DNA of 45,855 nucleotides from a virus (Duplodnaviria > Heunggongvirae > Uroviricota > Caudoviricetes). The stretch lies in IMG/VR virus record IMGVR_UViG_2531839662_000038, one strand, 5' to 3'. The translations under genes were made by a program, and so were the position numbers. A model generated the notes under the pieces. The model made no database searches. It was given only the letters and a program-made list of their open reading frames with translations, and was not told where the DNA came from. Shown here in pieces: positions 4,368 to 20,370 of this stretch (position 1 is its first letter; each line of letters begins with the position of its first letter).

Positions 4368-4988
4368 TTAATCATCTGCTTGCAGTGGTGGTAAATCCGG
4401 CACTGTTACGCCAAACAATGCAGCCAGCGCACGATAGTTTTGCTCACTGTGATAGCGGCCTTTACAGCGAACCAGTTTTTCAGCGGCTGTAACAATCGAG
4501 CTTTGTTCTGCTATGCGCTTTTCTGAGGCTTCAAGTAACGCCTGCTTGTCGCGTAGTGCTTCTTCCAGTTCAGCAACATGGCATTCACTATCAATGAGGT
4601 TGTTCTCTGTTGCTTCCAGCTCAACACGCAGCTTCACTACCGTTAGCGCAATATCCTCGTTCTCCTGATCGCGGAGTTTGATGTATTGCTGGTTTCTTTC
4701 CCGTTCATCCAGCAGTGCCAGCACAGTAACAGGATTGGCTGCGGCGATGAATTCAGCATTGGCCTGCTGTTCCATTTGGAAATCTTCATCGAAACCGCTT
4801 TCAGGATGCACTCCTTCAATTCTGCAAATGGGAAGATATCCAACAACGTCACGATGAATTAGCGCATCATCACAATCAAATCGGCTCTCTCCATATTCTA
4901 GCGACCACACACCACACGTTGCTTTCTCTGCCTTTTCACGCAGTGCCTGATAATCAATCTGGCTCACTGGTTGCCTCCTTTGCGCCAC
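4368..4988 (-). CDS. Ead/Ea22-like protein
   Basis: 206-aa ORF with central coiled coil; resembles Ea22-family proteins of lambdoid early-left regions. Confidence 0.5.
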
Positions 4989-5141
4989 ATCGCATTCAGA
5001 TATTTGTTTTGATTCACTGACGGAAAAGAATTTCTCTTAAGTAATTCCTCTCTCGATGGCATTGGCTTTACGCGTTGGCGAATAATCATTTCTGCCGGAA
5101 GAATGCCGGGATTGTATGCAAGTCCTCTCATGGTAAATTCC

Positions 5142-5435
5142 TCAGTCATTACTGATAGCGCCATAGCGTGAGCGGTAATTACGCAGGCGCGGGTCAATTT
5201 CATGGAAGTGGGTATATGTGGCTTTGCGGAATGGTCGGATTGATGTCTGGTAAATTCGCTCGCGTTCTTCTTTCTCTGCAAGCCATATACAATGGCGAAA
5301 TTCCTTTTCCTCTTTCGTTTCCTGCGGTAGCGACATTATCCTGTCGTAGTTTTTCCTGAATTTATCCAGCACCTCCGATACGGAATTGCCGGAACAGCGG
5401 CGCGCGTCGTCCGCACCATACAGAGGCGCTGGCAT
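5142..5435 (-). CDS. Hypothetical early-left protein
   Basis: 97-aa ORF in operon context; the overlapping ORF 4964..5281 probably contributes only a short downstream gene (ATG at 5131 with GAGG Shine-Dalgarno). Confidence 0.4.
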
Positions 5436-5458
5436 AATGGGAGCCTTATTTTAAGTAA

Positions 5459-6046
5459 TCAGAAAGGAGGGTAATCGTTCTGGCTGTAACCATAATCATC
5501 TGCATGATTCTGGCTTACGTTTTTAGAGCGATTGTCTTTATCTTTGAGGCTGGCAACCATGTTGGCGATAGTTTCTGGTTGCTTGCCTTCCGCCTTTTCT
5601 TTAAGGGTTTGACCTGTTTGTGCAATAAACGGGATGCGTATTTCCATCTGGTAGCTGTCTGCGCCAGTCTTTTTGTTTGTGGTTAATACTTTCTGGAGCA
5701 CTAACCCGATTTTCTTTCCATGAAATTCAGGAGCAACAAATTTACTGGCGGAAACCATATGTTGCGTTAATTGTCCAATCCCGGCACACCCCATCATGGC
5801 GTGGACGACATTTGCGCCAAATTTATTTTCCGTTCCGTCATTTTTCTGAACACAGACGCTAAGATATTGGATTTTACGTCCGTCGTCGGATTCGCCAGAA
5901 AACTCAATAAATTTGGCTCCTTTTTCTGATTGCTTTAGTTCTGCTTCAGTAATGGTAATGATATGAGCGCCAGTTTCGTTAATAAAACCACCTTGCCCTG
6001 CGGTCAGTGCTGCTTCTTCGTTATAAGTAAAAATCACGTTGTTCAT
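5459..6046 (-). CDS. SSB-like protein (DUF669-type) partnered with Sak4
   Basis: 195-aa ORF; acidic/aromatic C-terminal tip (DDYGYSQNDYPPF) resembling the SSB C-terminal DDDIPF tail; immediately downstream of Sak4. Confidence 0.55.
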   Translation of the reverse strand: MNNVIFTYNEEAALTAGQGGFINETGAHIITITEAELKQSEKGAKFIEFSGESDDGRKIQYLSVCVQKNDGTENKFGANVVHAMMGCAGIGQLTQHMVSASKFVAPEFHGKKIGLVLQKVLTTNKKTGADSYQMEIRIPFIAQTGQTLKEKAEGKQPETIANMVASLKDKDNRSKNVSQNHADDYGYSQNDYPPF

Positions 6047-6723
6047 GCTGCGTTTTCCTTAATTTGATGAACATTATTGATGCCGTAGTAATCACAAACA
6101 GTGGCATCGACGAAAGAGAGATCGTTATCAATCTCATTGGAGTCAAACATTCCCATTGGGGATTTAACAGTGTCTGCACCGTTGTTTTTTGTGGTGAAAA
6201 AGAACTGGTCATCACGGGTAAGGGTGCGAAGAACTATAGTAAACATGCCTTCGACAGTGATTTTCTCGTCCAGCATTTTGCCGATAGTTTTCATTTTCAC
6301 GCGCCCCATAGGGGTTTCTTCGGTGTGTGCAAGAAAATAGACTCTCAGGTCATCAGGTGCATCCTGTGCAGCCTTAATCACCTCCCATGCGTGGCGGCCT
6401 ATCTCAGTAAATTTATCAAACGATTTTTCTTCTGAGCGGCGCATAAACTCATTGCTCATCACATACTGGAAGTCATCAACAATAACGATTCTTTTCCCGT
6501 ATTCGTGAGCACGCTTAATTACGGCAACTATTACGTCCCATTTGTCAGTGGTAACTACGGTTCCTTTTTTTGCTCTGGCATCCCATGCAAGCCAGTCTTT
6601 TGATTTAAATGGTAGCGGCTTGCCTATTGGTTTTATAAGTATTGCTTCCTCTGGATTGATATTTCTCATGCTGGTTGATTTTCCGGTGCCAGATTCACCG
6701 AGTATTAATGTCGCAGTTCCCAT
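6043..6723 (-). CDS. sak4: Sak4-type RecA-like single-strand annealing ATPase
   Basis: 226-aa ORF; Walker A GESGTGKST and Walker B IVIVDD; occupies the position of lambda Red genes. Confidence 0.7.
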   Translation of the reverse strand: MGTATLILGESGTGKSTSMRNINPEEAILIKPIGKPLPFKSKDWLAWDARAKKGTVVTTDKWDVIVAVIKRAHEYGKRIVIVDDFQYVMSNEFMRRSEEKSFDKFTEIGRHAWEVIKAAQDAPDDLRVYFLAHTEETPMGRVKMKTIGKMLDEKITVEGMFTIVLRTLTRDDQFFFTTKNNGADTVKSPMGMFDSNEIDNDLSFVDATVCDYYGINNVHQIKENAA

Positions 6724-6731
6724 AATTTGCC

Positions 6732-6932
6732 TCAGAATGGTAATTCGGATGGGACGGAAAGAAATTCGCGCTCATTCATGCGCTCTCTTTGAGCCTGCCA
6801 TAAACAAAGTTGTTTCTTTGATTTATCTCCCGCTTTACGCCAGTAACGAGCCTCAGCAATGTGATATTCTCTTTTTAATCGACTTAATTCTGGAGTTTTC
6901 GCCAGTTCTACCGGAATCATTTTGACCTCCAT
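6732..6932 (-). CDS. Hypothetical small protein
   Basis: 66-aa ORF between Sak4 and kil. Confidence 0.4.
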   Translation of the reverse strand: MEVKMIPVELAKTPELSRLKREYHIAEARYWRKAGDKSKKQLCLWQAQRERMNEREFLSVPSELPF

Positions 6933-7030
6933 TTTCTGTAGGCTTCGATGGCCTCACGAAACATCTTTTCATCGCCAATAAAAGTGGCGATAGTGAATTT
7001 AGTCTGGATAGCCATAAGTGTTTGATCCAT
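6917..7030 (-). CDS. kil: Kil-like host-killing protein
   Basis: ORF 6917..7156 contains MDQTLMAIQTKFTIATFIGDEKMFREAIEAYRKWRSK, recognised as lambda-Kil-like; overlaps cIII by about 30 nt in another frame as in lambda; start codon uncertain. Confidence 0.55.
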   Translation of the reverse strand: MDQTLMAIQTKFTIATFIGDEKMFREAIEAYRKWRSK

Positions 7031-7163
7031 TTTTTGGGACTCCTGGCTGATTAAGTACGTCGATGAGTCGTTTCCATCCGTCACGTAATTTGCGGGTGAT
7101 TCGTTCAAGTAAAGATTCGGAAGGGCAGCCAGCAACAGGCCACCCTGCAATGGCATATTGCAT
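6999..7163 (-). CDS. cIII: CIII, inhibitor of FtsH (stabilises CII)
   Basis: Internal 54-aa segment MQYAIAGWPVAGCPSESLLERITRKLRDGWKRLIDVLNQPGVPKNGSNTYGYPD within ORF 6999..7223, recognised as lambda CIII. Confidence 0.9.
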   Translation of the reverse strand: MQYAIAGWPVAGCPSESLLERITRKLRDGWKRLIDVLNQPGVPKNGSNTYGYPD

Positions 7164-7223
7164 GGTGTGCTCCTTATTTATACATAACGAAAACGCCTCG
7201 AGTGAAGCGTTATTGGTATGCAT

Positions 7224-11659: not shown

Positions 11660-12607
11660 ATGAGCAATACAGCAAAAATCTACGATTTCAGCGCCGCACA
11701 CGAGCGCAGGAGCAACAGGATGGAGAACCAGAAAACTGGTTACATTCCGTTGTACCGGAGCATTCTGAAACAGTCATGGGCGAAAGATGTTTATCTTCGC
11801 ACCCTGTGGGAAAACCTTCTCCTGAATGCCGCCAGAAAGCCACACAAAGCGAATTTCAAAGGTCATGAATGGCATCTGCAACCCGGTCAACTGGTTGTGA
11901 CAGCAGCTGATTTAGGTCTTCAGTTATGCGACAGGCATGGCAAGCCGGCAAGCCGTGATCAGGTTGAGCGGATGCTTCAGGTTTTTGTGAAAGAGGGGAT
12001 GATCACCATTGATGGAGAGAAGCAAAAAGGTCGTGTGATCACCATCACGAATTACCATGAATATGCTCAAAAAATGGACAATTCACCCGCACATGAAGCC
12101 GCACAAACAACCGCACATGACGCCGCACATGACGAAGCCAGTAATGGCGCGGCTTTCAGCGTACATGCCGCACATGAAAGCGCACATGAAGCCGCACAAA
12201 CAACCGCACATCATGAACAAGAAGGTATTAACAAGAATATAAATAATACCCCCCTACCCCCCAATGGGGGAGGCGATGGGCAGGTTAAACCTGAACGTCG
12301 CAAGGCAGAACGAATCGACTATGAATCCTTCCTGAATGCCTACAACACCGAAGTCGGTGACAGACTGCCACACGCTGTTGCGGTCAACGAGAAACGCAAA
12401 CGTCGCCTGAAGAAAATCATTCCGCAACTGAAAACGCCAAACGTGGACGGTTTCAGAGCGTATGTCAGGGCGTTTGTGCATCAGGCCAAGCCGTTTTACT
12501 TCGGAGACAACGACACGGGCTGGACGGCAGATTTTGATTACCTGCTGAGGGAAGATTCGTTAACGGGAGTACGGGAAGGGAAGTTTGCAGACAGGGGGAT
12601 TGCATGA
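11660..12607 (+). CDS. O: Replication initiator, O-like (P22 gene 18-like), containing the iteron origin
   Basis: 315-aa ORF starting [10 protein letters not shown] (compare lambda O MTNTAKI...); internal iteron array followed by an AT-rich tract. Confidence 0.65.
12085..12250. repeat. Origin iterons: repeated CCGCACATGA / GCCGCACAAACAA units followed by an AT-rich tract
   Basis: At least six CGCACATGA copies between 12087 and 12213, including two near-identical 29-bp units; AT-rich 12215..12250. Confidence 0.7.
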
Positions 12608-13980
12608 GACAGGATATCGAAGCGAGCGTTATCGGTGGCCTGCTGATTGGTGGATTAACTCCAACCGCCAGTGACGTTCTGGCAACGCTTGAGCCGGAAG
12701 CGTTTTCAATTCCGCTCTACAGGAAAGCCTTCGAGGTTATCCGCAAGCAGGCGAGAAACAGAAACCTAATCGATGCGCTGATGGTTGCCGAGGCGTGCGG
12801 AGAGGAGCATTTCACGTCAATCCTGATGACCAGCAAAAACTGCCCGAGTGCCGCAAACCTGAAGGGATATGCCGGAATGGTCGCGGATAACTATCACCGC
12901 CGTCTGGTGCTGGAAATCATGGATGAAATGCGTGAACCAATTCAGAGCGGAACCATCGACGCATCGAGTCAGGCGATGGATGAGCTTGTAAAGCGTCTCT
13001 CAGCCATCAGAAAGCCCCGTGACGAGGTTAAACCTGTACGGTTAGGGGAAATCATCACCGACTACACTGACACGCTTGACAGGCGTCTGAGGAACGGAGA
13101 AGGGTCAGATACCCTGAAGACCGGAATCGAAGAACTTGACGCCATCACCGGAGGGATGAACGCAGAAGACCTGGTGATTATCGCTGCTCGTCCTGGTATG
13201 GGGAAAACCGAGCTGGCGCTGAAGATTGCCGAAGGCGTTGCAAGCCGCGTTATTCCAGGTTCTGACGTTCGGCGCGGAGTATTGATTTTCTCAATGGAAA
13301 TGAGCGCATTGCAGATTGCAGAGCGAAGCATTGCCAACGCCGGGAGGATGTCGGTTAGCGTACTGCGAAATCCTGCATCGATGGATGACGAAGGCTGGGC
13401 GCGTGTTGCTAACGGCATGAGTCAGCTTGCAGATTTGGATGTATGGGTAGTCGATGCCTCGCGGTTATCGGTCGAAGAAATACGCTCAATCGCAGAACGG
13501 CACAAACAGGAAAATCCAAACCTCTCACTCATCATGGCGGATTATCTTGGCCTGATTGAGAAGCCGAAAGCAGACCGCAACGACCTCGCAATTGCTCACA
13601 TCTCCGGAAGCCTGAAGGCGATGGCGAAAGACCTGAAAACGCCTGTTATCTCCCTGAGTCAGCTTTCTCGCGATGTTGAGAAGCGACCAAACAAACGCCC
13701 GACAAACGCAGATTTGCGTGATTCAGGAAGCATTGAGCAGGACGCAGACTCAATCATCATGCTCTATCGGGAAGCGGTGTATGACGAGAACAGTAGCGCC
13801 GCGCCATTTGCTGAAATCATCGTGACGAAAAACCGTTTTGGCTCACTTGGTACGGTTTACCAGCGGTTCTGTAACGGACACTTTGTTGCATGTGACCAGG
13901 ATGAAGCCAGACAGATTTGCACAGCATCAAATGCGCCTGCTGCGCGTGGCAGACGATATGCACAAGGGGCGGACGTATGA
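12604..13980 (+). CDS. Replicative DNA helicase, DnaB family (P22 gene 12-like)
   Basis: 458-aa ORF; Walker A ARPGMGKT, DnaB-like C-terminal domain; start overlaps O-like stop. Confidence 0.85.
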
Positions 13981-14061
13981 CCATCTACATCACTGAGCTA
14001 ATAACAGGGGCTATTTACACAGTAGCCCTTTTTTATTGGATTAAGAACGAGGGGGATCCTG

Positions 14062-14274
14062 ATGGACACCGTTAACGGAATGTGTTCAGACGCACCGCGT
14101 GCCAAAAAATGTAAGTGCGGAAAATCACCGACAATATTCGACATGGAGAACGGGTGCCAAATCTACTGCGCTAACCACGCTGCTGTGGCGGCCGCGAATT
14201 ATCGCAGTGCGGTAACGGAGTGGAATAACCTGAAATCTGTTAGAGAGGGAAGTCATGAAAAAACTAACCTTTGA
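14062..14274 (+). CDS. Hypothetical small Cys-rich protein
   Basis: 70-aa ORF with CKCG...C...C pattern in the position of ren/ninA. Confidence 0.4.
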   Translation: MDTVNGMCSDAPRAKKCKCGKSPTIFDMENGCQIYCANHAAVAAANYRSAVTEWNNLKSVREGSHEKTNL

Positions 14275-14671
14275 AATTCGATCCCCAGCACATCAGCAAA
14301 ACGCTATTCACGCGGTACAGAAAATTCTTCCAGACCCAACCAAACCAATCGTAGTAACCATTCAGGAACGCAACCGCAGCATTCGGCAAAATGCACGCCT
14401 TCACGCGATGCTATCTGAAATAAGTAAGAAGGCTACATATCATGGGAAAGCAAGAAATATTGAGTTTTGGAAGGGGTTATTCGTTTCTGGTTGGCAGATT
14501 GCAACCAACCAGCACCCTGAGATTATATCAGGGTTAGAAGGTGAGCTAATAAACATCAGAGAGAGTACGGCGACTCTATCTGTAAAAAAAATATCCGAAA
14601 TAATGGACTACATAGAAGCATATTGTGCCATGAACTCAATTCATCTTAGCGAATGGAGGAATTATGATTGA
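14255..14671 (+). CDS. ninB: NinB (Orf-family recombination protein), C-terminally altered
   Basis: Starts MKKLTFEIRSPAHQQNAIHAVQKILPDPTKPIVVTIQERNRS as lambda NinB; ends ...SEWRNYD just where the HNH gene begins. Confidence 0.8.
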   Translation: MKKLTFEIRSPAHQQNAIHAVQKILPDPTKPIVVTIQERNRSIRQNARLHAMLSEISKKATYHGKARNIEFWKGLFVSGWQIATNQHPEIISGLEGELINIRESTATLSVKKISEIMDYIEAYCAMNSIHLSEWRNYD

Positions 14672-15266
14672 GGTTTGGGTAGATATCGAAGGAATTCCAT
14701 TTTATCAGGTTAGCAATAAAGGAAATTTCAGGTCTATTACGAGGGAAATTACAGTAACATCAACCAGACAGAGGCCATATAAGAAAATAATTAATGGCAC
14801 TAGCGTAAAACCATTCAAGTGCAAGTCGACAGGATATCTTCAAATAAAGGTATACGGTAAGAAATACAGCGCCCACAGGATAGTTGCGAAAGCATTCTGT
14901 ACAGGGTTCTGTGATGGCTTGGTAGTTAATCACAAAAATGGGCAAAGAGATGACAATAGGGCTGAAAACCTTGAGTGGGTATCACATTCTGAAAACTCAA
15001 AGCACGGATATAAACAAAATGGAAGAATACCTATATCGCTAGGTAAATTTAGTGGTGATCATCCTGCCAGTAAAGCTGTTATTTCTACTGACATGAAAAC
15101 TGGGGAGGAGGTTTATTATGAAGCAGCTATGGATGCTGTCAGAGAAGGATTTGATAGTTCGTCAATTAGTCGTTGCTGTAATGGCGAAAGCTCATATCAC
15201 AAAGGAAGATTCTGGCGATTTGCAAATGAAACAATGAAAGCGCGATGGGGAGATCGGGCCGCATGA
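14664..15266 (+). CDS. HNH homing endonuclease (NUMOD4-like N-terminus plus HNH_3 motif) inserted at the ninB 3' end
   Basis: 200-aa ORF; motifs VWVDIEGIPFYQVSNKGNFRS and VNHKNGQRDDNRAENLEW; GGAGG Shine-Dalgarno; C-terminal KARWGDRAA looks like a NinB tail; stop overlaps methylase ATG. Confidence 0.8.
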   Translation: MIEVWVDIEGIPFYQVSNKGNFRSITREITVTSTRQRPYKKIINGTSVKPFKCKSTGYLQIKVYGKKYSAHRIVAKAFCTGFCDGLVVNHKNGQRDDNRAENLEWVSHSENSKHGYKQNGRIPISLGKFSGDHPASKAVISTDMKTGEEVYYEAAMDAVREGFDSSSISRCCNGESSYHKGRFWRFANETMKARWGDRAA

Positions 15267-15790
15267 CTATCAAATCAAATACGCCAGCACACGACAAGGA
15301 CTGCTGGCAAACGCCGCTTTGGCTTTTTGATGCACTGGATATTGAGTTTGGATTCTGGCTGGATTCGGCAGCGAGCGACAAAAATGCTTTATGCGCTCAC
15401 TGGCTAACTGAGGCCGACGACGCGCTCAATTCTGAGTGGGTAAGCCACGGTGCAATCTGGAATAACCCACCGTACAGCAATATCAGGCCGTGGGTGGAAA
15501 AAGCCGCTGAGCAGTGCATACAACAGCGACAGACGGTAGTTATGCTTGTGCCAGAGGATATGTCAGTCGGATGGTTCAGCAAGGCTCTGGAGAGTGTCGA
15601 CGAAGTTCGCATTATCACTGATGGACGGATTAATTTTATCGAACCATCGACAGGGCTGGAGAAGAAGGGAAACAGCAAAGGCTCCATGCTGCTGATTTGG
15701 CGACCGTTCATCAGTCCTCGACGGATGTTTACTACCGTATCCAAAGCGGCATTGATGGCAATCGGGCAGGGCGTCAGGAGGGCGGCATGA
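15263..15790 (+). CDS. Phage DNA N6-adenine methyltransferase (Dam-like), in the ninC position
   Basis: 175 aa from ATG at 15263 (ATGA overlap); NPPY motif (IWNNPPYSN). Confidence 0.7.
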
Positions 15791-15963
15791 GGCGACAGCG
15801 ACGAAGTTTCACCGACATCATCTGCGAAAACTGCAAATACCTTCCAACGAAACGCTCCAGAAATAAACGCAAGCCAATCCCGAAAGAATCTGACGTAAAA
15901 ACCTTCAACTACACGGCTCACCTGTGGGATATCCGGTGGCTAAGACATCGTGCGAGGAAATGA
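15787..15963 (+). CDS. ninE: NinD/NinE-family small protein
   Basis: 58 aa [58 protein letters not shown]; ATGA-coupled to the methylase gene. Confidence 0.6.
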
Positions 15964-16331
15964 CAATGGATTATTCACAGTTAAGTGATTTTGAAATTAA
16001 CGTGGCGGTATTCGAAGCCATTCATAACGGATCACCGGATTACAAAGAAGGTGAGAATGGCGATATGGTGTTTGTCTCATTTGAGGGAGACATTGTAAAC
16101 GGAGACGCAGTTGAAGTAGAAGTTGAGCGCGGATCCTTTAACCCATGCGCAAACCCAGCAGACTCATGGCCGATTATTGAAAAATACAGGATTAGCATTA
16201 TCAATCTCGATGAAGACGAGTGGGGTGCACGCGGTGTGGCCTACTGTAAATCTAAGCGAGCTATACATGAAAATCCCCTCCGCGCCGCCATGATTGTCTT
16301 TCTCATGATGCAGGACGCCAATAATGCTTAG
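15960..16331 (+). CDS. Nin-region protein (DUF2591/NinX-like)
   Basis: 123 aa from ATG 15960 overlapping the upstream stop. Confidence 0.45.
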
Positions 16332-16500
16332 CCCATCCCAATCCATTCAATACCAGAAAGAAAGCGTCGAGCGGGCTTTAACGTGCGCTAACTGCGGTCA
16401 GAAGCTGCATGTGCTGGAAGTTCACGTGTGCTCCGATTGCTGCGCAGAACTGATGAGCGATCCGAATAGCTCAATGTACGAGGAAGAAGACGATGGCTAA
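16324..16500 (+). CDS. ninF: NinF
   Basis: 58-aa ORF below the ORF-track cut-off, [58 protein letters not shown], recognised as NinF. Confidence 0.75.
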   Translation: MLSPSQSIQYQKESVERALTCANCGQKLHVLEVHVCSDCCAELMSDPNSSMYEEEDDG

Positions 16501-17059
16501 ACCAGCGCGAAGACGATGTAACCGTAAAAGAGAAGATTTAACTGTTAAAAGGATATTTGAGTTACTAAGTTTCGATAAATCTACCGGTGTATTTAGATGG
16601 AAAGTTCCCACTCAGGGAAGGATAGCATTAAATAGTGTTGCTGGAACTTTTGATTCCAACGGTTATTCAATGATCATGATTGATGGGCGTAGATATAAAA
16701 CTCACGTCTTAGTTTTTTACATAACTCATAATCGTTGGCCTGCTGGTCAAATTGACCACGTTAATGGAATTAGGACCGACAATAGGCCAGAAAATTTAAG
16801 AGAATGCCTGCCAATAGAAAATTCAAGAAATATAAGGATCCGAAAGAATAGCAAATCAGGTTGCAGAGGAGTTACTTGGCACAAACGACAGAAAAAATGG
16901 AATGTTAGGCTAGGTTTCCATGGCAAGAGTAAACACTTCGGATGCTTTGATGATCTGGAGTTAGCGGTACTAGTTGCTGAAGAAGCCCGAGATAAGTATT
17001 ACGGTGATTTTTCCGGCAACGAAAGGAGCACTTATGCGAATCTATCGAAGGAAATGTAA
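16493..17059 (+). CDS. HNH endonuclease with AP2-type DNA-binding domain, inserted at the ninF/ninG junction
   Basis: 188-aa ORF; HNH motif [19 protein letters not shown]2-like [27 protein letters not shown]; N-terminus MAKPARRRC resembles a NinG N-terminus; overlaps ninG start by 26 nt. Confidence 0.8.
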
Positions 17060-17636
17060 ATGTTGCAATGAATGGTTTATACCAAAATATCAAAATCAAT
17101 ATTGGTGTAATGAGATTTGTGGAACAAAGATAGCACTCGAACGACGAAGCAAAGAACGCGAAAAAGCGGAAAAAGCAGCAGAGAAGAAACTACGACGAGA
17201 GGAGCAGAAACAGAAAGATAAACTGAAGATTCGAAAACTCGCCTTAAAGCCCCGCAGTTACTGGATTAAACAAGCCCAACAAGCCGTAAACGCCTTCATC
17301 AGAGAAAGAGACCGCGACTTACCATGTATCTCGTGCGGAACGCTCACGTCTGCTCAGTGGGATGCCGGACATTACCGGACAACTGCTGCGGCACCTCAAC
17401 TCCGATTTGATGAACGCAATATTCACAAGCAATGCGTGGTGTGCAACCAGCACAAAAGCGGAAATCTCGTTCCGTATCGCGTCGAACTGATTAATCGCAT
17501 CGGGCAGGAAGCAGTAGACGAAATCGAATCAAACCATAACCGCCATCGCTGGACTGTCGAAGAGTGCAGGGCCATCAAGGCGGAGTATCAACAGAAACTT
17601 AAAAAACTGCGAAACAGCAGAAGTGAGGCTGCATGA
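17034..17636 (+). CDS. ninG: NinG (Rap-family recombination endonuclease)
   Basis: 200 aa from ATG at 17034 with AAAGGAG Shine-Dalgarno; Cys-rich CxxC motifs; the ORF-track start at 16974 is inside the HNH gene. Confidence 0.8.
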
Positions 17637-18298
17637 ATATCTACGAAAGAATTGATGGCAGCAAATACCGAAATATTTGGGTAGTTGGCGATCTGCACGG
17701 ATGCTACACGAACCTGATGAAAAAACTGGAGACGATAGGATTCGACACCAAAAAAGACCTGCTTATCTCGGTGGGCGATTTGGTTGATCGCGGTACAGAG
17801 AACGTCGAATGTCTGGAATTAATCACATTCCCCTGGTTCAGAGCTGTACGTGGAAACCATGAGCAAATGATGATTGATGGCTTATCAGAGCGTGGAAACG
17901 TCAATCACTGGCTGCTTAATGGCGGTGGCTGGTTCTTTAATCTCGATTACGACAAAGAAATTCTGGCTAAAGCTCTTGCCCATAAAGCAGAAGAACTTCC
18001 GTTAATCATCGAACTGGTGAGCAAAGATAAAAAATATGTTATCTGCCACGCCGATTATCCCTTTGACGAATACGAGTTTGGAAAGCCAGTTGATCATCAG
18101 CAGGTAATCTGGAACCGCAAACGAATCAGCAACTCACAAGACGGGATCGTGAAAGAAATTAAAGGCGCGGACACGTTCATCTTTGGTCATACGCCAGCAG
18201 TGAAACCACTCAAATTTGCCAACCAGATGTATATCGATACCGGCGCAGTGTTCTGCGGAAACCTCACATTGATTCAGGTACAGGGAGAAGGCGCATGA
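17633..18298 (+). CDS. ninI: NinI serine/threonine protein phosphatase
   Basis: 221-aa ORF; metallophosphatase motifs GDLHG, GDLVDRG, GNHE. Confidence 0.85.
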
Positions 18299-18918
18299 GA
18301 CTCGAAAGCGTAGCTAAATTTCATTCGCCAAAAAGCCCGATGATGAGCGACTCACCACGGGCTACGGCTTCTGACTCTCTTTCCGGTACTGATGTGATGG
18401 CTGCTATGGGGATGGCGCAATCACAAGCCGGATTCGGAATGGCTGCATTCTGCGGTAAGCATGAACTCAGCCAGAACGACAAACAAAAGGCTATCAACTA
18501 TCTGATGCAATTTGCACACAAGGTATCGGGGAAATACCGTGGTGTGGCAAAGCTTGAAGGAAATACTAAGGCAAAGGTACTGCAAGTGCTCGCAACATTC
18601 GCTTATGCGGATTATTGCCGTAGTGCCGCGACGCCGGGGGCAAGATGCAGAGATTGCCACGGTACAGGCCGCGCGGTTGATATAGCAAAAACAGAGCAGT
18701 GGGGGAGAGTTGTTGAGAAAGAGTGCGGAAGATGCAAAGGTGTCGGCTATTCAAGGATGCCAGCAAGCGCCGCATATCGCGCTGTAACGATGCTAATCCC
18801 AAACCTTACTCAACCCACCTGGTCACGCACTGTTAAGCCGCTGTATGACGCTCTGGTGGTGCAATGCCACAAGGAAGAGTCAATCGCAGACAATATCTTG
18901 AATGCGGTCACACGTTAG
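18295..18918 (+). CDS. Q: Late-gene antiterminator Q, lambda type
   Basis: 207-aa [30 protein letters not shown]..., recognised as lambda Q. Confidence 0.95.
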
Positions 18919-18960
18919 CAGCATGATTGCCACGGATGGCAACATATTAACGGCATGATA

Positions 18961-18989
18961 TTGACTTTTTGAATAAAGTTGGGTAAATT
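18961..18989 (+). promoter_or_regulatory. Late promoter pR' (-35 TTGACT, 17-bp spacer, -10 TAAATT) with qut region immediately downstream
   Basis: Near-identical to remembered lambda pR' sequence TTGACT...GGGTAAATTTGAC. Confidence 0.8.
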
Positions 18990-19128
18990 TGACCCAACGA
19001 TGGGTTAATTCGCTCGTTGTGGTAGTGAGATAAAAAGAGGCGGCGCTTACTACCGATTCCGCCTAGTTGGCCACTTCGACGTATCGTCTGGAACTCCAAC
19101 CATCGCAGGCTGAGAGGTCTGCAAAATG

Positions 19129-19191
19129 CAATCCCGAAACAGTTCGCAGGTAATAGTTAGAGCCTGCATAACGGTTTCGGGATTTTTTATA
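19129..19191 (+). terminator. tR' terminator (3' end of the short 6S-type pR' transcript)
   Basis: Stem AATCCCGAAAC ... GTTTCGGGATT followed by TTTTTT. Confidence 0.8.
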
Positions 19192-19586
19192 TCTGTGCAA
19201 CAGGTAAGAGCATTCTCCCTTATGGGGCTTGGCTTAAATGCACCGAGTGCTCTTATCGTTGTGCTGAATTAAGCGAATGCCGGAAGCAGAACCGGATCAC
19301 CAAATGCGTACAGGCGTCATCGCCGCCCAGCAACAGCACAACCTAAACTGAGCCGTAGCCACTGGCTATCCTGAATTCATCAGTGATAGTTACGCTGCGG
19401 CCTTCTACACATGACCTTCGTGAAAGCGGGTGGCAGGAGGTTGCGCTAACAACCTCATGCCGTTTTGCCCGTGCATATCGGTCACGAACAAATCTGATTA
19501 CTAAACACAGTAGCCTGGATTTGTTCTATCAGTAACCGACCTTATTCCTAATTAAATAGAGCAAATCCCCTTATTGGGGGTAAGAC

Positions 19587-19910
19587 ATGAAGATGCCAGA
19601 AAAACATGACCTGTTAGCCGCCATTCTCGCGGCAAAGGAACAAGGCATCGGGGCAATCCTTGCGTTTGCAATGGCGTACCTTCGCGGCAGATATAATGGC
19701 GGTGCGTTTACAAAAACAGTAATCGACGCAACGATGTGCGCCATTATCGCCTGGTTCATTCGTGACCTTCTCGACTTCGCCGGACTAAGTAGCAATCTCG
19801 CTTATATAACGAGCGTGTTCATCGGCTACATCGGTACTGACTCGATTGGTTCGCTTATCAAACGCTTCGCTGCTAAAAAAGCCGGAGTAGAAGATGGTGG
19901 AAATCAATAA
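19587..19910 (+). CDS. S: Holin/antiholin S (dual-start MKM motif)
   Basis: 107-aa [34 protein letters not shown]..., recognised as lambda S107. Confidence 0.95.
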
Positions 19911-20370
19911 TCAACGTAAGGCGTTCCTCGATATGCTGGCGTGGTCAGAGGGGACTGATAGCGGACGTCAGAAAACCAGAAATCATGGTTATGACGTCAT
20001 TGTAGGCGGAGAGCTATTCACTGATTACTCAGATCACCCTCGCAAACTTGTCACGCTAAACCCCAAACTCAAATCAACAGCTGCAGGCCGTTACCAGCTT
20101 CTTTCCCGTTGGTGGGATGCCTATCGTAAGCAGCTTGGCCTGAAAGATTTCTCTCCGAAAAGCCAGGACGCTGTGGCACTGCAACAGATTAAAGAGCGTG
20201 GCGCTTTACCGATGATTGATCGCGGTGATATCCGTCAGGCTATCGACCGTTGCAGCAATATCTGGGCTTCACTGCCGGGCGCTGGTTATGGTCAGTTCGA
20301 GCATAAGGCTGACAACCTGATTGCAAAATTCAAAGAAGCAGGCGGAACGGTCAGAGAGATTGAGGTATGA
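19894..20370 (+). CDS. R: Endolysin R (lambda-type lytic transglycosylase)
   Basis: 158-aa [25 protein letters not shown]..., recognised as lambda R. Confidence 0.95.

Follow-up and report, generated by a model that had tools for sequence, protein, structure and literature searches.

We describe here a gene cassette in the lambdoid nin region of a 45,855-nucleotide (nt) stretch of DNA, the IMG/VR virus record IMGVR_UViG_2531839662_000038 (Caudoviricetes), which in its full length is referred to as the window. According to our analysis, the cassette is probably a free-standing homing endonuclease gene of the I-HmuI-type HNH family, lodged in the 5' end of ninG (rap), the lambdoid gene for a Holliday-junction/D-loop nuclease. 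We posit that it was formed once by one-sided break repair and was then spread by recombination or homing. The endonuclease gene is linked with a substitute ninG 5' end, the two are distributed as a patch, and the open reading frame (ORF) of the endonuclease is conserved. The features at the junction of ninF and ninG are as follows (protein lengths in amino acids, aa):

16324..16500, + strand: ninF (58 aa), from the ORF list and a PF05810 match (E=8e-14)
16480-16484, + strand: GAGGA ribosome-binding site inside the 3' end of ninF, which serves the ATG used by the HNH ORF
16493..16520, + strand: putative remnant of a lambda-type ninG, consisting of the ATG and codons 2-9 (MAKPARRRC) and now the N-terminus of the HNH ORF, from the lambda alignment
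16493..17059, + strand: predicted HNH_3 + AP2 endonuclease ORF, 188 aa, from Pfam, PHROG_99 and the predicted fold
16521-17021, + strand: unique core DNA of the 188-aa ORF, GC 0.385
17022..17117, + strand: heterologous ninG 5' end with ribosome-binding site, ATG at 17034 and 28 codons, GC 0.29
17034..17636, + strand: ninG/rap, 200 aa, predicted full-length chimera with codons 1-28 of the MRIY type and codons 29-200 of the lambda type, from the PF05766 match

The limits of the cassette were obtained by comparing filled with empty sites, using pairwise BLAST and global alignments. Through position 16520 (...CGATGTAA; GCGCGAAGACGATGTAA) and again from 17118 (TGTGGAAC...), the window is collinear with phages lambda and 2B8. 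Relative to lambda and to the Salmonella phage ER25, 597 nt (16521-17117) stand in place of 64 nt of ninG, and a 57-nt stretch that is identical in lambda and ER25 (GGAATGGTTTCACCC...GAGTGTGGAAC) is absent from carriers. Foreign DNA at the ninF/ninG junction is confined to 16521-17117, and the cassette including the nine-codon remnant (hereafter the stub) and its ribosome-binding site occupies 16480-17117, whereas an earlier note on this DNA had given coordinates spanning ninF through ninG. The comparison with related phages that this note had recommended revealed that lambda, 2B8 and ER25 all lack the HNH gene at this position. The last of these is near-isogenic with the filled Salmonella prophage L013: the two are 98-100% identical over the whole ninG body, including the P22-type 3' end, and the cassette is their only difference. 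While the NinG of ER25 begins MAKSARRRCKNEEC... (MAKSARRRC), the stub in L013 is of the lambda type, MAKPARRRC. The stub is lambda-type despite the local MAKSARRRC and therefore travels with the cassette as a short patch.

The 188-aa ORF starts at an ATG that overlaps the ninF stop codon (ATGGCTAA) and combines an HNH with a putative AP2 domain, in line with the description in the earlier note. HNH_3 (PF13392) is matched with E=4e-11 (42.7 bits versus a cut-off of 24.8) and the PHROG_99 family 'HNH endonuclease' with E=1e-71, and the AP2 match is sub-threshold but supported by the predicted fold. Residues D88, H89, N101, L102, R103 and N110 are invariant among the aligned homologues, and the DH...N...N motif of the HNH_3 beta-beta-alpha-metal core is intact. 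For an AlphaFold model (pLDDT 88) derived from 15 sequences, the top Foldseek matches in the PDB are I-HmuI (1u3e; probability 1.00, E=0.012) and plant AP2 domains, with model residues 122-173 matching the AP2 domains of AtERF1, WRI1 and TEM1 (TM-score to target 0.46-0.67, rmsd 1.1-2.0). The predicted structure thus supports a C-terminal AP2 DNA-binding domain, and PF00847 is carried by the homologues P0126, P0132, P0133 and P0135. When the PDB was searched by sequence, no structure of NinG was found, and the match to AP2 was marginal. Homologues with the annotation HNH or homing endonuclease occur in more than 3000 phage records, and the closest of those that are not identical reach at most 47% identity. 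A search for closer relatives of the endonuclease, with its native N-terminus and a donor context, found none between 47% and 99% identity. The 188-aa ORF is intact in 61 of the 62 related loci where it could be read, and nucleotide differences among them are mostly synonymous. A decayed copy of the cassette (L023, from IMG/VR) has its HNH ORF truncated to 76 aa.

This ORF has neither a start nor a stop of its own. It uses the ribosome-binding site, ATG and first nine codons of ninG, and its first nine residues are identical to residues 1-9 of lambda NinG (2-10 of the annotated 204-aa form), which confirms the statement of the earlier note that NinG begins with MAKPARRRC. It terminates at an out-of-frame TAA (17057-17059) inside the new ninG 5' end. 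In practical terms, the first nine residues of such HNH proteins do not belong to the endonuclease family. Expression presumably occurs by read-through from pR, with translation coupled to ninF. Around the two start sites, neither the promoter and terminator scans nor the RNA-fold scans did better than shuffled controls, and the RNA-fold scans provided no evidence of a hairpin translational control of the T4-endonuclease type. The offset between the two pieces derived from ninG is 538 nt and thus not divisible by three, and an Rfam search of 14000-18500 returned no family at E<=1, neither intron nor other RNA. An intein and an intron are excluded by these results. That ninG possesses its own ribosome-binding site and ATG likewise rules out an intron- or intein-encoded endonuclease.

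On the other side of the cassette, the predicted NinG is a full-length chimera with a heterologous N-terminus rather than a truncated protein. The ATG at 17034 is located 26 nt before the HNH stop (overlap 17034-17059) and is preceded by AAAGGAG (17022-17028) and a 5-nt spacer, all of which the earlier note had noticed. The ORF that begins there runs to 17636, encodes 200 aa and covers positions 5-192 of the 193 in the PF05766 profile (E=5e-84). Over its first 28 residues, this NinG aligns one to one with the N-termini of others, and C8, C11, C25 and C29 coincide with cysteines in lambda NinG and in other NinGs, so that the Cys4 motif is kept. The underlying DNA (17034-17117, hereafter the MRIY segment) is only ~55% identical to its lambda equivalent and has a GC content of 0.29 vs 0.50, and the ninG body is 87-100% identical to lambda per 60-nt bin. 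Compared with ~0.50 in the flanks of the cassette, the GC content of its core is 0.385 and that of the MRIY segment 0.29. Because the 28-codon peptide aligns with that of lambda and retains the cysteines while the DNA has diverged, NinG is complete and chimeric. This would explain the existence of NinG proteins that start MRIYRRKC. In most related loci NinG is intact at 200 or 203 aa.

The earlier note had instead suggested that ninG restarts from an internal site, which would mean that the insertion truncated a lambda-type NinG and that a new ATG and ribosome-binding site arose de novo. The HNH ORF does hold the original nine codons of NinG, and the NinG ATG does lie inside the HNH ORF. We nevertheless consider such a restart highly improbable in view of the PF05766 coverage and the aligned, cysteine-bearing N-terminus. 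Moreover, at ~55% identity the MRIY segment is not lambda sequence read internally, and the same ribosome-binding site, ATG and N-terminus are present in contigs that lack the HNH gene (see below). A gene split into two reassembling polypeptides was also ruled out, since the nine upstream codons are fused to the HNH ORF and the downstream NinG is complete.

The HNH-free counterparts are found on three contigs (L008-L010), in which ninG starts MRISRRKCKCC..., with the same ribosome-binding site and N-terminus and with no HNH gene upstream. Their NinG protein is 87% identical to that of the window. Homology between the window and L008 begins at the ribosome-binding site/ATG, the segment 17022..17117 of the window being 88% identical to L008. 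Upstream of ninG these contigs carry an unrelated 74-aa ORF (PHROG transcriptional-regulator match) that ends at the same TAA, 26 nt into ninG. Nine of the first 33 codons differ between L008-L010 and the window, seven of them synonymously, a pattern that points to selection in the NinG frame. As the MRIY-type start is native in this lineage, the ATG at 17034 appears to be a borrowed natural ninG start and not a new one. A native start of the MRIYRRK kind and the same ORF boundaries without an HNH domain, either of which the earlier note had taken to refute its reading, are thus encountered in L008-L010, in that lineage only and there with an MRIS start, and they tell against a restart of ninG from an internal site. 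Among 120 homologues the NinG N-terminus is highly variable by nature, even without an adjacent HNH gene, and similar N-termini occur in NinGs of Photorhabdus and Xenorhabdus (M(K/N)KP(S/V)RRKCKICCEWF(I/M)PKY.N.YWCN).

The block of HNH gene plus ninG (at least 80% of a 761-nt query covered) was detected in 532 of 5426 complete E. coli genomes, mostly of Shiga toxin-producing E. coli (STEC), and its two genes are already annotated there as 'HNH endonuclease' and 'recombination protein NinG'. The cassette is also present in the phages AU6Stx1 and SH2026Stx1 and in many Salmonella P22-like prophages. The MRIY segment was found in 538 E. coli genomes and adjoined an annotated HNH gene in 60 of the 60 rows sampled. 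All 52 IMG/VR contigs and all six metagenome contigs with a 44-mer of this segment are cassette carriers; no other kind of locus emerged from these two scans, and the HNH-free MRIS allele is represented by L008-L010. The same 44-mer had no match in a scan of one genome per GTDB species. In the literature we found no description of an HNH cassette at ninF/ninG or of its chimeric ninG.

In the carriers examined, the stub, the core and the MRIY segment are 98-100% identical to the window, and identity falls in the flanks (ninF and the 3' part of ninG) to as little as 75-90%, the ranges being 85-100% in ninF and, in Salmonella, 75-84% in the 3' part of ninG. The cassette occurs in many mosaic contexts with two left-flank classes, which are as follows: (i) loci with ninF, and (ii) a STEC class without ninF, in which homology starts exactly at the GAGGA at 16480. 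Two partial matches, H113 and H200, were suspected to be recombinants inside the MRIY segment, and H200 turned out to be an IS2 insertion in ninG. In the E. coli genome Z1323CEC0014 (L073), IS2 is located in ninG just 3' of the MRIY segment.

The ninF/ninG junction itself appears to be a general hot spot for cargo. Other E. coli prophages carry unrelated ORFs of 130 aa (L005, 1554-1946) and 89 aa (L006, 1554-1823) at this place, and still other prophages have a KilAC antirepressor gene after ninF, at the same ninF-overlapping start position as these ORFs. Taken with the many context breakpoints at gene ends and with the diversity of NinG N-termini, which is widespread even without an adjacent HNH gene, such a hot spot would suit a passive history. 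An inactive or non-homing 'moron' HNH gene would have entered the ninF/ninG boundary once and been moved by ordinary shuffling of nin modules, with the stub and the alternative ninG 5' end as accidents. We regard this as unlikely. The ORF is maintained with conserved catalytic residues, and the inserts of L005 and L006 leave the MAKPARRRC NinG intact, whereas the HNH insert replaces exactly the region that it adjoins. Furthermore, the filled and empty Salmonella loci differ by a tight patch centred on the HNH gene, and a second, unrelated HNH gene lies 2 kb away with a mirror-image footprint, a coincidence that is hard to credit to chance twice.

This second endonuclease gene is situated at the 3' end of ninB:

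14255-14671: ninB
14664..15266, + strand: predicted NUMOD4 + HNH_3 endonuclease ORF at the 3' end of ninB, from Pfam and the comparison with lambda NinB

Residues 1-42 of NinB are of the lambda type (nt 14255-14380, 97%) and residues 43-138 are heterologous, while the endonuclease ORF ends in KARWGDRAA, the last nine residues of lambda NinB. GC in the ninB region (14255-15266) dips to 0.35-0.41. The protein contains NUMOD4, HNH_3 and an I-HmuI NUMOD-like domain and is not of the AP2 type, so that the earlier note erred in counting the ninG endonuclease as the second HNH-AP2 enzyme. Its claim of two independent endonuclease invasions that reuse host gene ends is supported: the enzymes are unrelated, resembling each other only around the HNH motif (37% identity over 60 residues), and one has taken up MAKPARRRC at ninG and the other KARWGDRAA at ninB. 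The architecture at ninB would accordingly be read as the mirror image of that at ninG, and its occurrence with an unrelated endonuclease supports the one-sided-repair model. As a tentative extension, to which we assign a rather low probability, the mirrored footprint (a nine-codon stub fused to the endonuclease, with a heterologous low-GC gene end opposite) could be a general signature of homing into a new context by one-sided-homology repair. The variability of the NinG N-terminal zinc ribbon and of the NinB C-terminus in Enterobacterales might then be driven by repeated attack and target-site replacement.

For the cassette at ninG, we posit the following course of events. A donor phage would have carried the endonuclease gene just upstream of an MRIY-type ninG, and a lambda-type ninG, broken near codon 9-10, would have been repaired from this donor, forming the cassette in a single event. 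On the right side, a homologous crossover may have occurred inside ninG at TGTGGAAC (17118). On the left side, donor and recipient would have shared no homology, and an illegitimate join would have fused the nine-codon stub in frame to the endonuclease. Illegitimate break repair with one-sided homology lets mobile elements enter ectopic sites, according to the account of Parker et al. (1999) given in PMC2988022. The endonuclease would since have been translated from the original ribosome-binding site and ATG of ninG, coupled to the ninF stop, and NinG would have been kept functional by the co-travelling substitute 5' end with its Cys4 zinc-ribbon-like motif, probably derived from a divergent natural ninG allele. 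The cassette may then have spread among lambdoid phages of E. coli and Salmonella as a short patch, through recombination in ninF and ninG. We infer cleavage and homing by the HNH-AP2 protein, which probably stimulates this spread by cutting HNH-free ninG within the part of the gene that has been exchanged in carriers. The substituted 5' segment would remove the likely recognition sequence and render carriers immune to their own enzyme.

Several points weigh against this reconstruction. The loci were retrieved by means of a 44-mer from the MRIY segment, and the 100% identity of that segment is therefore partly forced. The cassette was never seen without an adjoining ninG, and many of its context boundaries coincide with gene ends (16324, 16358, 17636), as in ordinary lambdoid module shuffling, so that active homing is not required to explain its distribution. 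The cleavage activity and the target site are what we infer from the sequence, and a donor with the native N-terminus of the endonuclease was not found among the relatives searched. The HNH-free MRIS allele represents one lineage on three contigs from related sequencing runs, and this lineage could in principle have lost an HNH gene. Finally, the AP2 match of the 188-aa ORF (E=1.8e-4, 22.2 bits) is below the Pfam cut-off of 33.3 bits, and the Foldseek E-values are weak (0.01-0.1), though the top ranks agree.

The presence of the cassette in about 10% of complete E. coli genomes, its strong conservation, and its co-transcription and translational coupling within the nin operon could also be expected of a domesticated nuclease. 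Such an HNH-AP2 protein would serve the phage, for example by excluding or degrading lambdoid competitors with a lambda-type ninG or by acting in DNA metabolism together with NinG, and marker exclusion by free-standing endonucleases of T4 is known (PMC2988022). This explanation seems quite improbable to us. There is no partner or defence-type context, PHROG_99 with HNH_3 and AP2 is a typical phage homing endonuclease family, and the prevalence is mostly due to clonal STEC lineages. Exclusion and homing are, in addition, mechanistically the same cut, and a role in exclusion would refine the homing cassette that we propose rather than compete with it.

With respect to its surroundings, the order of genes in the window is helicase, ninB, the NUMOD4 + HNH_3 ORF, dam methylase, ninE, ninX, ninF, the 188-aa ORF, ninG, ninI and Q, and 13879-20200 is 100% identical to a prophage of the porcine E. 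coli UMNF18. The DnaB-like helicase gene (12604-13980) is intact in the window. The UMNF18 prophage and the IMG/VR contig L055 match the window at 100% identity from 13879 on and have the helicase gene interrupted at 13879-13885; the insert in UMNF18 is annotated as IS1203. The gene ninH is absent from the window, where the ninG stop overlaps the ninI ATG (ATGA, 17633-17636) as in phages 434 and 2B8; in lambda and most close relatives, ninH is present at the ninG/ninI position. Additional endonuclease genes were observed near ninG in related loci. Directly 3' of the MRIS-type ninG of L008 is a 375-aa ORF (4604-5731), in which an HNH_3 endonuclease 30% identical to that of the window is fused in frame to the Q antiterminator (DUF1133 / Phage_antitermQ), another fusion of an endonuclease with a neighbouring gene. 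In the cassette-bearing Salmonella prophages (L011-L016, ~5940-7201), one more NUMOD4 + HNH_3 ORF, of 172 aa, separates the Q antiterminator from the holin/lysis genes.

The cassette may serve as an example, found in nature, of a free-standing homing endonuclease gene that has entered a coding region and left it unharmed by taking over its translation start, with the substitute gene end that the endonuclease brings along also removing its own likely target. It is found in the Stx-phage regions of O157:H7 and other STEC, which are among the carriers counted above. If active, it would drive both the recombination and the mosaic structure of the nin/Q/stx region in prophages of medical importance.

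Already known are the enzyme family, endonuclease genes of the free-standing kind, divergence of the target site in carriers and the in-frame capture of a host N-terminus. With the free-standing HNH enzymes of phages (I-HmuI-type HNH_3 with NUMOD/AP2, the T4 mob genes and T5 F-Tfl; His-Me finger group 2), the cassette shares the catalytic family and, by prediction, the domain logic (HNH_3 plus AP2). It also shares the lack of an intron or intein, the presence or absence at a fixed site in collinear phages, the low GC content, the divergence of the target gene between carriers and non-carriers, and the near-identical copies in many backgrounds (PMC5714182; PMC2988022). Unlike these enzymes, it sits inside the 5' coding end of a host gene and not between genes, its ORF has no start or stop codon of its own, and it is known here from sequence alone. 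The T-even and T5 cases concern virulent phages, whereas this cassette resides in temperate lambdoid prophages. One-sided-homology repair, studied in the intron homing of T4 (Parker, Belisle and Belfort, 1999; reported in PMC2988022), predicts exactly such a footprint, in which a mobile element arrives at an ectopic site with one end set by a homologous crossover and the other by a non-homologous join. The T4 experiment employed an intron-encoded endonuclease, while the event at ninG is deduced from sequence comparison.

In the Salmonella phage epsilon34, gene 31 fuses the N-terminus of EaE in frame to an HNH homing endonuclease (PMC2629481), and there too, in a P22-like/lambdoid phage, the start of a resident gene has been taken over. 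The host gene and the HNH lineage are different in that case, and a replacement end of the host gene was not reported there. The closest parallels for a host function that is preserved are mobE in nrdA of the Aeromonas phage Aeh1 and mobA in the topoisomerase gene 39/60 of T4, in which an HNH gene likewise lies within a gene of DNA metabolism (PMC2988022). Whereas nrdA and 39/60 yield two polypeptides that reassemble, the downstream ninG is predicted to be complete by virtue of its substitute 5' end, and the stub is merely fused to the endonuclease.

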